Shown here in pieces: positions 22,509-34,204 of a stretch of 64,000 nt of DNA. How positions within the stretch are numbered: the stretch's first letter is position 1; each line of letters begins with the position of its first letter. Both the position numbers and the translations under genes were made by a program. Under the pieces are notes generated by a model. That model saw only the letters and a program-made list of their open reading frames with translations, ran no database searches and was not told the origin of the DNA. Source of the DNA: Candidatus Latescibacterota bacterium (GTDB taxonomy: Bacteria > Latescibacterota > UBA2968 > GCA-2709665); contig OZ241917.1 of the NCBI GenBank assembly GCA_965203805.1, positions 4,832,001-4,896,000 on the forward strand. Reading direction: 5' to 3'.

Positions 22509-22656
22509 TACAAACGTCACTCATCACGCGATCGCCGTAACAGCTTGAACCGCGTTTGACCTCATACTTTCGACATCCACAATTTGGCGATCTGGATCAT
22601 GCGTGGCGTAGGCATGGCCTTTCGCGATCCGGCCGCGCGGGCCGGTGGAGGTTGCG

Positions 22657-23739
22657 ATGAGACGGTCTCTGGCATTGGTTCTTCTCTGGGCGTTCTCGGC
22701 GCTGGCGGCGGCTGGAGCGTCCGCCTGCGACAGCGATACGGGGACCGCCGGGTCCTACGCATCCCGCGCCGGCGCCGTTCTGGGGACGTACCGCCCGGCG
22801 CCGCCGGACCGCTCGCCGGAGACCATGGCGCGCGCGGCGGCCCGCTTCCTGGGTTCGCTGAACGAGGCGCAGAGCCAGGCCGCGCGCCACGGCCTGGCGA
22901 GCCCCGAGAGACGCAGGTGGACCAACGCCCCAGTTCGCGGGCCGGCCGGCGGCGTCGCGCTGGGCGACCTGGACAACGACCAGCTTCGCGCCTTCTCGGA
23001 CCTTCTGGCGGCGCTGCTCAGCGCGAAGGGCTACGCCAAGGTACGGGACGTCATGCTGGGGGACGACCTGCGCGCCGTTATCGACGGCGAGCCGAATGAG
23101 GGGGTGGGGATCGAGGCCTTCCGCTTCGTCCTGTTCGGGGAACCCTCGGCGGCGTCGCGATGGGCGGTGCAGCTCGACGGGCATCATGTCGCGCTCAACG
23201 TCACGCTCGATGGCGACGCCTATTCCCTGTCGCCGAGCTTCATCGGCACCTACCCGCAGGCGTTCACCGTGGCGGGCGTGAAGTTGCGGCCGCTGGGCGC
23301 GGAGACGGATCTCGCGCACAGTCTGGCCGGCAGCCTGACGCCGGAGCAGCGCGCGCTGGCGGTGATTGCCGACCGGCGCGGCGCGCTCCGAGTCGGGCCC
23401 GGCCGGGACGGCGTCGTCCCGGAGCCCGTCGGCATACCCGGTAGACTGCTGGACGGGACTCAGAGGGAGAAACTCGTCGCCCTCGCCTCGCAGTGGTTCG
23501 ACCTCATGCCGCCGGACCCTGCGCGGGCGCACAAGGCGCGGTTTCTCGACGGGCTGGGCGAGACCCGGTTTGCCTGGAGCGGCCCGCTCGCGGCCGGGAG
23601 CGACGTCTCTTGGGCCATACAGGGGCCGTCGATAGTCATCGAGTATGCGAACGACGCGCGGGGCGGCGCCGACGCCGGCAATCCCGCGGATCACGTGCAC
23701 TCCGTCTATCGGGACCTCGACCGAAACCTGGGGCTGTAG
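22657..23739 (+). CDS. DUF3500 domain exported protein
   Basis: RRWTNAP, LS.KGY, FGEP, WAVQLDGHH, YANDA...HVHSVYRD; N-terminal signal MRRSLALV...ASAC. Confidence 0.85.
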   Translation: MRRSLALVLLWAFSALAAAGASACDSDTGTAGSYASRAGAVLGTYRPAPPDRSPETMARAAARFLGSLNEAQSQAARHGLASPERRRWTNAPVRGPAGGVALGDLDNDQLRAFSDLLAALLSAKGYAKVRDVMLGDDLRAVIDGEPNEGVGIEAFRFVLFGEPSAASRWAVQLDGHHVALNVTLDGDAYSLSPSFIGTYPQAFTVAGVKLRPLGAETDLAHSLAGSLTPEQRALAVIADRRGALRVGPGRDGVVPEPVGIPGRLLDGTQREKLVALASQWFDLMPPDPARAHKARFLDGLGETRFAWSGPLAAGSDVSWAIQGPSIVIEYANDARGGADAGNPADHVHSVYRDLDRNLGL

Positions 23740-31628: not shown

Positions 31629-31656
31629 TTGACAAAAGGGTTCGTTCGCTTATATT
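31629..31656 (+). promoter_or_regulatory. sigma70-like promoter of lnt-tatC
   Basis: TTGACA-16 nt-TATATT. Confidence 0.6.
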
Positions 31657-31779: not shown

Positions 31780-31794
31780 GGAGGAACCGGAATC

Positions 31795-34116
31795 ATGGCG
31801 GAGGCACGGCAGGGCGCAGACTGGAAATGGATGGCGCTGTTTCCCGCGGTTTCGGGCCTTATCCTCGGCGCGGCATTTCCGCCTCTGCCTCTGGGTTTTC
31901 TGTCTTATGTCGCGCTGATCCCGCTGCTGCTTGCGGCGGAGCAGGTGCGCGGCAGGGCGGCTTTCGCCGCAGGGTTCGTTCAGGGGATCTTCTTTTACGG
32001 TGTCACGCTATACTGGATCGGTTCGATCACGCCGCCCGGCATGGCCGGCGCGGTTTTTTATATGTCCCTGTTTCGCGGCCTGTTCACGTGGGGGTTCGCC
32101 AGAGTCGTCGCGCGATATGGCGGCGCGGGGTTGTGGAGCGCGCCGTTCCTCTGGGTGGGGTTGGAATATTTCAACTCTGTGGGCGATATGGGGTTTCCAT
32201 GGGTCGTGCTGGGAAATTCCCAGACGGCCTGGCTGTGGCTGATCCAGTATGCCGAAGTGACGGGAGTGTACGGGGTTTCGTTCTGGATTGTGGTGGTCAA
32301 CCTGAGCGTGCTGATGCTCTGGAGGCACCGGGCGCGGCGCAGGATTTGGGTTGCGGTTCTGGCGGCCCTTTTTGCGGGACCGGCGGCAAACGGGTATCTG
32401 GCTCTGAAGAACGTTCCGGATGAACAACCCGTGACCGTCGGCCTGGTCCAGCCGGATATGCCGCCTGTGGCCAAGGAATACCGGGGATTCGATTACAATT
32501 TCGGCAAGCTGAAGCCGATGACCGTCGAGGCCGCGCAGCAGGGGGCAGGGCTCGTCGTGTGGCCCGAGACAGCCGTGGGCTATCTGAAAGGGGAATTGTA
32601 CCGGCGCCATCGCGAGCGGGTGCAGGCAATGGTGGACTCGCTCGGCATTCATCTGTTTACCGGCGCATACAGACTGGAAGCCGGCGACCCTGTAAAGGTC
32701 TTCAACTCCTCGTTTCTGTTCGCGCCGCGAAGCGGGATCATCGGACACTACGACAAGACACGCCTCGTGCCGCTCGGTGAACGAGCGCCGTTCCCGGAAT
32801 TGCTTCCGTTTCTGAGAAAGATCAGGTTCACGGGCGGCGGGTTCGTGGGGGGCAACTGGGATTCCGGAGAGACCCGGACGGTCTTCGACGTTTCCGAAGC
32901 CCGTTTCTCCGCGCTGATCTGTTACGATTCGGTCTTTCCCGGATTCGTGCGGGCTTTTGCGGACCTGGGGGCCGAGTTTCTGGTGATCATTACCAATGAC
33001 GGCTGGTTCGGCCGGACTTCCGGACCCTTTCAGCACGCCGAGGCGGCTGTGTTTCGCGCCATCGAGAACCGGCGTGACGTGGTACGCTGCGCGAATACGG
33101 GCGTTTCCACGTTCATCGACGCCTACGGACGGAAATCGGGAACGACCGGGATTTTCCATCCGGCGGTAGTGACGCAGGGAGTGACGCCTCGAACCACAAA
33201 GACGTTCTATACGAGATACGGAGACCTGTTCGCCCGGCTTTGCCTGGTACTGGGCGTGATCATGGGGTTGATGTCCTTTCGAGGTCGAACAACGGATGCA
33301 TCCCATTCCATACTGCCACCGGGCTCCGAAACGCCCGCCGGACGCCCGCCCGAACCGGCTTCGGGCGGCGACGACAGGGCGATGCCCTTTCTGGATCATC
33401 TGGAGGAACTGCGATGGCGTCTGTTAAAGGGGCTGGCGGCCCTCACGGTCGGCGCCGTGATCTGCGGGGTATTCTCGGACAATATCCTCGGGTGGCTCGT
33501 GCTGCCTGTCCGGGAGGCGACACCCGTCATGAAGCTGTTGGGCGTGGCGCCCGTCGAGCCGCCGGTCAAGCTGATCTATTTGAAACCGATGGGGATGTTT
33601 CTCGTTAAACTACAAATCGCCCTTGTCGGCGGCGCGATCCTGGCGTTGCCGGTTCTCCTGTATCAACTGTGGATTTTCGTCGCGCCGGGTCTGTTGACAA
33701 CAGAGCGGCGGTACGTATCTTTTATTGTCTTCTCATCGTCAATCTGTTTTGTCCTCGGTGGCGCCATCGCTTACGTGAGCGTGGTGCCGCTGTCGTTTCG
33801 TTTCCTTATTCTGATCGGCGAAGGGACCGGGGTCGACCCCCAGTTCGATATCGGCTTCTACATTGGTTTCGTGCTGAGGCTGCTGGTTGCGTTCGGGGTT
33901 GTCTTCGAGCTTCCGGTAGCGGCGTTCTTCCTGAGTCGGATCGGTCTGCTGACCGCGGACCGGATGCGTTGGGGAAGGAGATACGCGGTTGTGATCGGCT
34001 TTGTGCTGGCCGCGCTGCTGACGCCGCCGGACCCGATCTCCCAGCTGATGATGGCGCTCCCGCTGGTACTGCTCTACGAATTCAGCATCTGGGTGGCGCG
34101 TGTTGCCGGCAGATGA
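31795..34116 (+). CDS. lnt-tatC: Apolipoprotein N-acyltransferase (Lnt) fused in frame to twin-arginine translocase TatC
   Basis: Lnt motifs GFPW, WPETA, YDKTRLVPLGE, LICYDS, TNDGWF, RAIEN, ANTGVS; Pro-rich linker; TatC motifs MPFLDHLEELRWRL, FVAPGL..TE, FELP, LTPPDPISQ, LYE; no stop in 773 codons. Confidence 0.9.
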   Translation: MAEARQGADWKWMALFPAVSGLILGAAFPPLPLGFLSYVALIPLLLAAEQVRGRAAFAAGFVQGIFFYGVTLYWIGSITPPGMAGAVFYMSLFRGLFTWGFARVVARYGGAGLWSAPFLWVGLEYFNSVGDMGFPWVVLGNSQTAWLWLIQYAEVTGVYGVSFWIVVVNLSVLMLWRHRARRRIWVAVLAALFAGPAANGYLALKNVPDEQPVTVGLVQPDMPPVAKEYRGFDYNFGKLKPMTVEAAQQGAGLVVWPETAVGYLKGELYRRHRERVQAMVDSLGIHLFTGAYRLEAGDPVKVFNSSFLFAPRSGIIGHYDKTRLVPLGERAPFPELLPFLRKIRFTGGGFVGGNWDSGETRTVFDVSEARFSALICYDSVFPGFVRAFADLGAEFLVIITNDGWFGRTSGPFQHAEAAVFRAIENRRDVVRCANTGVSTFIDAYGRKSGTTGIFHPAVVTQGVTPRTTKTFYTRYGDLFARLCLVLGVIMGLMSFRGRTTDASHSILPPGSETPAGRPPEPASGGDDRAMPFLDHLEELRWRLLKGLAALTVGAVICGVFSDNILGWLVLPVREATPVMKLLGVAPVEPPVKLIYLKPMGMFLVKLQIALVGGAILALPVLLYQLWIFVAPGLLTTERRYVSFIVFSSSICFVLGGAIAYVSVVPLSFRFLILIGEGTGVDPQFDIGFYIGFVLRLLVAFGVVFELPVAAFFLSRIGLLTADRMRWGRRYAVVIGFVLAALLTPPDPISQLMMALPLVLLYEFSIWVARVAGR

Positions 34117-34204
34117 GCCGGGGTTGCGATGCAGGCGTTCCTTTACACGCCGGCGCCGGATCGGCGTCCGCAAGGCAATGTAGACTAACAAGGACTTGTT
34201 TTTA

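Follow-up and report, generated by a model that had tools for sequence, protein, structure and literature searches.

A predicted single-polypeptide fusion of apolipoprotein N-acyltransferase and TatC in uncultured Latescibacterota

The genes for apolipoprotein N-acyltransferase (Lnt) and the Tat translocase protein TatC were found joined in one open reading frame in the genome of a Latescibacterota bacterium. The frame lies on the forward strand at 31795..34116 of the 64,000-nucleotide stretch of DNA that was analysed (the window), ends in a TGA codon at 34114-34116, and is predicted to encode a natural covalent join of two envelope machines, one membrane polypeptide of 773 amino acids (84.8 kDa). 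Lnt and TatC are textbook, often essential components of the cell envelope that have been studied as separate proteins; in lipoprotein maturation Lnt follows Lgt and LspA and attaches the third acyl chain. Comparison with related genomes indicates that the fusion is real, that it is inherited, and that it has arisen several times. It is most probably a bifunctional housekeeping fusion, carried on one inner-membrane polypeptide (about 85 kDa) and descended from a translationally coupled gene pair. The literature searched contained no description of an Lnt-TatC fusion.

Two full-length modules in one reading frame

The Lnt module, amino acids 1-499 (31795..33291), was delimited by profile matches, alignment with E. 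coli Lnt, and hydropathy. In Pfam, LNT_N matched amino acids 20-170 (111.8 bits) and the periplasmic CN_hydrolase domain matched amino acids 215-446 (102.6 bits), while the NCBIfam lnt model TIGR00546 scored 322.1 bits against a cut-off of 132.9 and was covered from position 2 to 394 of 395. The first-pass annotation, made from the letters of the window, had recognized a full Lnt by the motifs WPETA, YDK, and ICYDS, and these were found to carry the predicted catalytic residues E258 (codon 32566..32568), K321 (32755..32757), and C376 (32920..32922), none of which varied among the 108 fused proteins compared. In the alignment they match WPE, NK..LVPFGE, and ICYE of E. coli Lnt, and we take their counterparts in E. 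coli numbering to be E267, K335, and C387. Identity to solved Lnt chains was low (E ~1e-31, phmmer), and the alignment of the Lnt part reached the last residues of E. coli Lnt (510-512 of chains 5XHQ/6Q3A). The last transmembrane helix, seen as a hydrophobic segment at about amino acids 477-495, is followed by RGR. Stand-alone Lnt of E. coli and P. aeruginosa (PDB 5N6H, 5XHQ, 5VRG, 6Q3A) has the same LNT_N and CN_hydrolase domains, triad, and last transmembrane helix, but ends after that helix, whereas the fused protein runs on through a 30-amino-acid linker into TatC. The Lnt half is a full apolipoprotein N-acyltransferase with predicted activity; its membrane domain would have eight helices, and the Glu-Lys-Cys triad would sit in a periplasmic domain of nitrilase fold.

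The TatC module covers amino acids 530-773 (33382..34113) and begins, as had been read at first, at the ATG at 33382, which encodes M530, the ancestral initiator methionine, followed by PFLDHLEELRW. Pfam PF00902 matched amino acids 534-756 over the whole profile (1-208 of 208; 222.3 bits), the NCBIfam tatC model TIGR00945 scored 199.3 bits against a cut-off of 132.7, and amino acids 530-772 were colinear with residues 1-231 of Aquifex TatC 4B4A and residues 5-235 of 4HTS. E637 and E705 did not vary among the 108 fused proteins, and E537/E538 were retained in 90% or more of them; these acidic residues, which lie in the N-terminal region, in cytoplasmic loop 1, and within the membrane, presumably correspond to E15, E103, and E170 of E. 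coli TatC. The FE(L/M)P motif of the TatC half matches in alignment the Aquifex motif with a buried Glu that is described in PMC9360617. The TatC of Aquifex aeolicus (4B4A/4HTS) and of minimal TatAC systems of the B. subtilis type gives the same full-length match. Minimal systems have a single TatA-family gene, according to the same source (PMC9360617), and so does the window's genome, in which the one tatA is at C1:1145349 (TatA_B_E match, 64.5 bits). The fused tatC does not adjoin it, and no tatA or tatB match was seen in the window, in agreement with the first reading. The TatC half and the single TatA are predicted to form a minimal TatAC translocase, which would export folded proteins with twin-arginine signals. 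The N-terminus of stand-alone TatC is free, whereas in the fusion it would be tethered to a 55-kDa membrane enzyme.

Between the modules is a linker of amino acids 500-529 (33292..33381), which is acidic and Pro/Ala-rich. It had been described as Pro-rich, which holds, and as about 35 amino acids long, which does not, the length being about 30. The linker is predicted to be translated as protein: across the 108 fused proteins it was in frame every time, at lengths of 16-93 amino acids (median 36) and with a composition of 15% E, 15% P, 14% A, and 14% D; within the genus its dN/dS was 0.50, compared with 0.12 for Lnt and 0.06 for TatC; and the motif SILP (amino acids 505-508, 33307-33318) was invariant across the genus. 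It occupies the position of the N-terminal extension of TatC in relatives with split genes. The linker would be disordered and would connect the cytoplasmic end of the last Lnt helix to the cytoplasmic N-terminus of TatC. Lnt has eight transmembrane helices with both termini in the cytoplasm, as stated in PMC8048626, and with the Lnt part aligned to its end and TatC aligned from residue 1 the fusion is topologically consistent, as had been proposed.

All 773 codons are open, without a stop or frameshift, which bears out the original reading of the frame. A GGAGG Shine-Dalgarno-like motif at 31780..31784 lies 10 nt before the ATG at 31795, and a consensus scan placed a promoter-like site (TTGACA-16 nt-TATATT, 11/12 matches) on the same strand at 31629..31656, some 140 nt ahead of the start codon. 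That scan returned four promoter-like sites, compared with a mean of 1.2 in shuffles. The genome has a canonical anti-Shine-Dalgarno sequence at its 16S tail, and Shine-Dalgarno-like motifs were found at 24% of crudely defined gene starts versus about 6% of background positions.

Distribution and origin of the fusion

The carriers belong to an uncultured Latescibacterota group from sponge metagenomes. The proposed fusion held throughout the window's order (families f1 and f2), where all 53 genomes were fused, but the sister lineages f3 and f4 were partly split, with the two genes still adjacent. The TatC match in the order lay within an open frame of 764-841 amino acids with two exceptions, one of 506 amino acids at a contig end (G019) and one of 713 (G049), and in both of these the frame was open across the junction. 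All 28 of the 28 junctions that were read directly in the order were fused, and identity among the 108 fused proteins compared was 40-88%.

Thirty of the 69 f4 loci were split yet adjacent, 62 of the 69 were either fused or adjacent, and two of the three f3 genomes (G042 and G043) had a split, adjacent pair. The split pairs have the same genes, order, and strand as the fusion, their TatC has an acidic N-terminal extension at the linker position, and MPFLDHLEELRW is conserved in them; what parts the two products is either a frame offset or a stop codon, in many cases one embedded in ATGA. In 11 of the split f4 loci the first in-frame tatC ATG was one base before the lnt stop (ATGA), and in four others an in-frame stop was followed by an ATG 6 nt on. 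Most genomes with split pairs also carry a second, divergent lnt, whereas the window's order has none. In a quick-search tree of Lnt alone (60 rows), in which the deep order was without resolution, the second lnt of f3 and f4 fell on a long branch. Linkage of lnt and tatC was found in none of 19 loci from other classes and none of 55 from other phyla.

The gene tree required four changes between the fused and split states under two models, and therefore the fusion appears to have recurred. Forcing the 31 fused f4 rows together cost 357.9 lnL (p-AU 0.00026). These comparisons show, as far as gene order and phylogeny can, an origin from an abutting, translationally coupled lnt-tatC pair that merged about four times. 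The ancestral state of the class would have been such a pair, with the tatC start often overlapping the lnt stop as ATGA and with a short N-terminal extension on TatC. A frameshift or loss of the stop at the junction would then have merged the frames, about four times, the extension becoming the linker, and the fused state would have become fixed throughout the window's order.

Fusion at the termini of Lnt has precedents. The annotation of the window had named mycobacterial Lnt-Ppm1, which we take to be Rv2051c of M. tuberculosis. As with Lnt-TatC, another enzyme is attached there to the cytoplasmic C-terminus of Lnt and relatives have separate genes, but Ppm1, a polyprenol-phosphate mannose synthase, is a soluble or peripheral protein, whereas the partner here is a six-helix translocase core. 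TatC was the sole C-terminal domain found in the present protein, which has no match to a mannose synthase there. Other natural fusions, Lnt-SNase and PAP2-Lnt, were also present; in these too the cytoplasmic termini of Lnt take partners, seemingly from neighboring genes, but the partners are different and, unlike TatC, include no component of protein export.

Some of the fused proteins were labeled Gemmatimonadota or Gemmatimonadaceae at NCBI and were counted as the same class as f4. Occurrence of the fusion in a second phylum, which these labels would imply, was rejected: the relatives P0115 and P0060 were tied to the f4 genomes G128 and G099, although P0113 itself was not among them.

Integrity of the frame and its translation

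A single-base error at an ATGA-type junction would yield exactly such a frame, and the frame is broken in two related genomes (G029 and G129, the latter locus L169), so an error that removed the lnt stop, or decay of the gene, had to be considered. The two breaks are inside lnt, however, and contigs from two other studies (X2 record 4 and X3 record 12) cover positions 32800-34200 unbroken; they differ from the window by 9 and 10 substitutions, contain no gap, and show no indel at the junction. Two contigs of a further run (X6) end at 33406 and 33414 and are uninformative for the junction, and an RNA run (X19) yielded three contigs only, of 151-231 bases and 90-99% alike, none of which crosses the junction and which provide no expression evidence for the gene. 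Each of the 53 genomes in the order, a good many of which are single contigs, keeps the frame, which also argues against an assembly error, while decay is contradicted by the strong purifying selection on both modules and by the invariant catalytic residues. Nor is there another lnt or tatC to take over: in the closed, one-contig genome of 5.87 Mb the fused gene was the sole lnt and the sole tatC over the profile cut-off, which answers the earlier question of stand-alone copies at that cut-off. An artefact or pseudogene is exceedingly improbable, and this reading is refuted as far as sequence data reach. It is also quite unlikely that TatC is made mostly or additionally on its own from the continuous frame, by an internal start at the M530 ATG or by cleavage in the linker, with the fusion protein minor or transient. 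TatC ancestrally started at that ATG, which in some split relatives (L134, L137, L182, and L183) comes first among the in-frame ATGs. None of the 34 fused loci and none of the split loci read has lost it, and 17 of 19 loci from other classes have it too; because it is conserved, an internal start is available. However, the 12 residues of the motif that includes M530 are conserved together, and Leu takes the place of the Met in two TatC genes of another class, so its conservation need not mean initiation. Shine-Dalgarno-like motifs at -16 to -5 preceded M530 in 7 of the 34 fused loci, a frequency to be set against the 24% and about 6% given above, and the purine-rich Glu and Gly codons of the linker could create them by chance; they were present in none of the 15 members of the window's genus and none was conserved across clades. 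The consensus scan found no promoter-like site inside lnt upstream of 33382. A disordered linker would be long enough for protease access, but in linkers of 16-93 amino acids from 53 genomes at about 55% identity no stop has accumulated, and the purifying selection on the linker in frame, with its invariant SILP, argues for a joined product. On the preferred reading, a bifunctional fusion, both modules would be made 1:1 and placed together in the membrane, each with its usual chemistry.

Tat export and lipoprotein maturation

As the only copy of either gene, the fused gene must serve all lipoproteins and all Tat substrates of the organism. The proposal that it is a machine dedicated to Tat-exported lipoproteins was therefore not sustained, and lgt and lspA are present as one gene each, unfused and elsewhere in the genome. 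The TAT-signal model TIGR01409 had seven matches in the genome, five of them over the cut-off, among which were PhoX, two Mo-enzymes, and solute-binding proteins. A loose regular-expression census of Tat signals was too noisy (981+43 matches, versus 407+23 in the reversed genome), and a strict expression (45+6 versus 9+0) was used after inspection by eye; TIGR01409 recovered the same seven loci as the inspected strict set. The DUF3500 protein of the window (22645-23739), once offered as a possible substrate, is absent from the seven, and its N-terminus (MRRSL...), with a very hydrophobic core, looks Sec-type. Three of the seven predicted Tat substrates, the three best TIGR01409 matches, have a lipobox, and in one of these candidate Tat lipoproteins, an MsrP-like Mo-enzyme encoded at C1:3319269-3320309, the RR motif and the lipobox Cys were both kept in 30 of 30 orthologous loci.

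Coupling of Tat export to lipoprotein maturation is plausible on such evidence, and a kinetic benefit for the Tat-exported lipoproteins of the organism is possible. The stronger reading, that Lnt and TatC act as one physical unit in which folded Tat-exported lipoproteins are matured beside the translocase, and that fusion only hard-wired a tie which the split, translationally coupled pairs had before, is unlikely. It draws on the linkage across one class (53 of 53 genomes fused in the window's order, together with the linked loci of f3 and f4), on the recurrence of the fusion about four times, and on the lipobox and RR conservation described above. Lnt is moreover joined to the N-terminal region of TatC, which takes part in recognizing the RR motif in the account given in PMC9360617. 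Against it, Lgt and LspA are needed before Lnt and yet are unlinked; the clients of Lnt must be mostly Sec-exported, with 220 Sec-type lipobox ORFs in a crude scan (reversed-genome control 36) versus three Tat lipoproteins; and overlapping genes merge easily without a functional tie. TatC frames in the phylum also continue from unrelated upstream ORFs, such as that of an Fe-S protein in G156. Within f4, close relatives switch between the fused and the split form. Selection may be neutral towards the fusion itself, which need not be useful. The most far-reaching version, in which Lnt and TatC are physical partners throughout the class, split or fused, forming a Tat-lipoprotein maturation unit with the acylase at the signal-binding N-terminal side of TatC that finishes folded Tat prolipoproteins at their exit, is unlikely. 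If this is true, an interaction of export with lipoprotein modification, undescribed in any organism, would have its 'Rosetta stone' in the four independent fusions.

The housekeeping fusion, which remains the favored explanation, would by itself mean that TatC can carry a membrane protein of 55 kDa at its N-terminal region, which assists in twin-arginine reading, and that Lnt tolerates a translocase on its C-terminus. To our knowledge, little is known of the coupling of Tat export and lipoprotein maturation outside actinobacteria and haloarchaea. One bacterial class in which lnt and tatC have been held together and joined repeatedly provides a testable lead on the spatial coupling of the two processes. 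The public names of these proteins, among those listed, were 'apolipoprotein N-acyltransferase', 'hypothetical protein', and, for one 622-amino-acid form, TatC; surveys based on names could therefore wrongly call Tat absent in these genomes.

Architecture and genomic setting of the fused gene

The gene at 31795-34116 (+) formed a single open frame, 773 codons long with TGA as its stop. Pfam assigned LNT_N to aa 20-170, CN_hydrolase to aa 215-446 and TatC, over its whole profile (1-208 of 208), to aa 534-756, and the NCBIfam equivalog models for lnt and tatC scored 322 and 199 bits, each against a cut-off of 133. In alignments with solved structures, aa 22-498 matched E. coli Lnt through its C-terminal residues, final membrane helix included, and aa 530-772 matched residues 1 to 231 of Aquifex TatC 4B4A. 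WPETA (E258) aligned with WPE of E. coli Lnt, YDK (K321) with NK..LVPFGE, and ICYDS (C376) with ICYE. The first-pass annotation, which had read from these three contexts a full Lnt continuing into a full TatC with no stop, was borne out on both points. The linker that it placed between the modules was also present, with a length nearer 30 residues (500-529, ...TDASHSILPPGSETPAGRPPEPASGGDDRA) than the 35 or so proposed.

The fused gene was the sole TatC and the sole Lnt match over cut-off in a profile search of its genome, and the sole Lnt-like match at E ≤ 1e-30, so the suggested check for a stand-alone tatC or lnt elsewhere found none over cut-off. The genome encoded one TatA-family gene (C1:1145349), one lgt (C1:3106943) and one lspA (C1:1712741). 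The fused gene was flanked by a divergent class I/II aminotransferase, a Na/Ca exchanger, and a sugar-nucleotide dehydratase. A GGAGG sits 10 nt 5' of the ATG of the fused gene, and a promoter-like site was found at 31629-31656; none was found 5' of 33382, where the TatC part begins at M530. M530 is the ancestral TatC initiator. The sequence MPFLDHLEELRW was conserved across the phylum; among 19 loci of other classes, 17 had an ATG there and two had Leu. Separate production of TatC from an internal start at M530 is a minor possibility: the equivalent ATG is the first in-frame ATG in some split relatives, and 7 of 34 fused loci have a Shine-Dalgarno-like motif 5' of it, but none of the 15 in the window's genus does.

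Integrity of the junction and selection

Logan contigs from sponge-metagenome runs of two other studies spanned 32800-34200 unbroken and gap-free; they carried 9 and 10 substitutions, and no indel was listed in any run; the junction thus held in the comparison with independent reads that had been proposed for it. The window's genome itself is one 5.87-Mb contig. Runs containing the window stretch were mostly labeled as sponge metagenome, and same-genus records (L031-L044; fused protein 85-94% identical) carried either Candidatus Latescibacterota or Gemmatimonadota labels. All of the genomes are metagenome-assembled genomes (MAGs) of uncultured bacteria, and their families and genera are coded here as in the search tool.

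A first search covered 40 relatives, drawn from nine genera in two families of the window's order. All 40 had a colinear, stop-free match, which was unbroken in 38; the match in genome G019 was divided by contig ends, and in G029 (G029:C1:5245443-5247709) the frame was interrupted around Lnt residue 54-104, with the Lnt-TatC junction open. A locus in sister family f4 (L169, G129:C181) likewise had a frame break within the Lnt part and an open junction. These two breaks may be either sequencing errors or decaying lnt modules. When the TatC part was the query, the match lay inside a 764-841-aa open frame in the 53 genomes of the window's order (its own genome, G000, counted), with the exceptions of G019 (506 aa, contig end) and G049 (713 aa), in which the frames were open through the junction.

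Among the 15 sequences of the genus, the linker had a dN/dS of 0.50, compared with 0.12 in Lnt and 0.06 in TatC. P521, D527 and SILP (aa 505-508, 33307-33318) were invariant in all 15 members in an otherwise variable linker, and the counterpart of SILP in other genera of family f1 was (S/T)ILP. A broader alignment of 108 fused proteins was made up of P0001 and 107 of the best 120 protein-database matches to aa 440-773; the others were set aside as close relatives (six), as short at the N-terminus (five) or as TatC alone (two). In this alignment the Lnt triad was invariant, as were many TatC residues, M530, E637 and E705 among them, and the linker was 16-93 aa long (median 36), with E, P, A and D accounting for 58% of residues. 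Spanning contigs, conserved frames and purifying selection together exclude an artefact or a pseudogene as far as sequence can tell.

Distribution and origin of the fusion

A total of 168 species genomes of the phylum were surveyed. The prospect that close relatives would all have separate genes was contradicted by the window's order (families f1 and f2), in which 53 of 53 genomes had the fused form. In sister family f3, the TatC frames were 265-283 aa in all three genomes; tatC was directly 3' of lnt in G042 and G043, and in G041 no lnt was found within about 8 kb upstream of tatC. In f4, 69 junctions were read directly. The genes were fused in 32, a count that includes L150 (contig end) and L169, which was flagged as split by the script for its lnt frame break and was counted as fused on a TatC frame open for 1,989 nt upstream. 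They were split but adjacent in 30 and 1.4-1.9 kb apart in two, and no lnt was found in the fetched stretch in five, one of which had just 374 nt upstream. In 11 of the adjacent pairs, the first in-frame ATG of tatC began one base before the stop of lnt, as ATGA; in four it was five bases before that stop. In four others there was an in-frame stop and then an ATG 6 nt on, and these four loci were the sister clade to the largest fused f4 clade. The split TatC thus usually carries a 20-30-aa acidic N-terminal extension in the place of the linker. TatC of f4 (L117-L125, for example) was about 27 aa longer than that of the window, with the extra residues between the first and second helix (tblastn span of 813 versus 732 nt; genome-search matches begin at query residue 35-64).

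In other classes of the phylum, none of 19 TatC loci had an Lnt match in up to 2.6 kb upstream, several of these stretches being cut by contig ends. In other phyla (Zixibacteria, KSB1, Calditrichota, Bacteroidota, Ignavibacteria and others), none of 55 Lnt loci had a TatC match in flanks of up to 3 kb. A collection of 5.8 billion proteins contained 237 matches to aa 440-773. The domain architecture suggested at first pass as a search target (CN_hydrolase with TatC) was recovered among the best 120: 113 had all three Pfam domains, five had CN_hydrolase and TatC, and two had TatC alone. These 120 were named 'apolipoprotein N-acyltransferase', 'hypothetical protein' or, in a few cases, TatC. Among 1.84 billion representatives at 50% identity, just two of the best 150 matches were Lnt-TatC proteins with confirmed domains (P0026 and P0091, both of types found in the window's class), in a search that is blind to a fused member behind an unfused representative. 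A full-text search of a limited set of papers found no description of an Lnt-TatC fusion. Taken singly, the two halves are ordinary for their families, and the novelty is in the architecture.

A tree of 92 concatenated Lnt and TatC rows required four changes between the fused and split states, and each of the four fused clades had 100% SH-aLRT support. The same four changes were obtained from a mixture-model tree of a 56-row subset (quick search). Forcing the 31 fused f4 rows together, a group chosen after the tree was seen, cost 357.9 log-likelihood units (p-AU 0.00026). The change counts do not distinguish gains from losses; because split forms are on all intervening branches, repeated fusion of lnt and tatC is the simpler reading.

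Predicted function and other TatC and Lnt variants

Both modules were complete and under strong purifying selection, with catalytic and functional residues kept. Lnt is described as having eight helices with the N- and C-terminus in the cytoplasm (PMC8048626), and TatC as a six-helix protein whose N-terminal domain and first cytoplasmic loop read the RR motif; TatAC systems that lack TatB are also described (PMC9360617). The join is therefore topologically sound, as had been proposed at first pass, and is predicted to put Lnt at the signal-binding side of TatC. We infer a bifunctional housekeeping enzyme-translocase of 14 helices, with the two modules made 1:1.

Tat substrates and lipoproteins were counted from open reading frames rather than called genes. 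TIGR01409, a TAT-signal model, matched seven sites in the genome at E ≤ 1, five of them over cut-off, and these were the same seven ORFs chosen by eye among 51 strict-regex matches. The seven predicted substrates were DctP-type and NMT1-like binding proteins, a heparinase II/III-like protein, two molybdopterin oxidoreductases, a dioxygenase, and PhoX. In the three best-scoring matches the Tat signal was followed by a lipobox Cys. One of these three, an MsrP-like molybdopterin oxidoreductase outside the window (G000:C1:3319269-3320309 (-)), had the Tat signal NRRKFLK, then the lipobox LVGCG and a poly-Glu or Pro/Gln-rich tether, and all 30 of its orthologous loci in the order (L235-L264) had both the RR motif and the lipobox Cys. 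The three matches and this conservation indicate that the predicted Tat lipoproteins are real here and account for much of what is a small Tat load.

By crude counts, the predicted clients of Lnt must mostly be Sec-exported, and Lgt and LspA are outside the fusion, so the proposal of a dedicated translocase-acylase for Tat lipoproteins was not supported; a coupling that helps Tat lipoproteins is a possibility. The DUF3500 protein at 22645-23739 (+) (224 bits), put forward as a possible substrate of this kind, has the N-terminus MEVAMRRSLALVLLWAFSALAAAGASAC, with a lipobox Cys, was absent from the TAT-signal matches of the genome, and is probably a Sec-type lipoprotein.

A second lnt, standing alone and sharing 32-37% identity with the Lnt of the window, was found in most f4 genomes and in G042 and G043 (L215-L224, L233 and L234; G071:C1:3224300-3226100 and others), and formed its own long-branch clade in a quick tree. 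G041 had an lnt of the second type only, plus an unlinked tatC. The window's order either lost the second lnt or never had it. In another family of the phylum, f10 (L202-L204, L206), an open frame of 170-197 aa, rich in Gly, Glu and Asp and without a Pfam domain, was found 5' of TatC, giving whole frames of 406-430 aa, so that this TatC has a different long N-terminal extension. In one genome of another class (L189, G156:C7, 311-1954 (-)), the TatC frame was stop-free from an RnfB-like Fe-S/4Fe-4S ferredoxin ORF (548 aa open), and the TatC frames of four other genomes of that family were 282-291 aa; this may reflect a recent fusion or, alternatively, an error in a MAG that is 57% complete.

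The mycobacterial Lnt-Ppm1 protein is a known analogue among Lnt fusions. Others were found among public representatives (P0184, P0193, P0166, P0176): Lnt with a staphylococcal-nuclease domain (688 aa), a PAP2 phosphatase with Lnt (735 aa), and Lnt with about 340 aa of C-terminal sequence without an assigned domain (826 and 842 aa). With Lnt-Ppm1 known and the nuclease and PAP2 forms found, Lnt is a frequent fusion partner.
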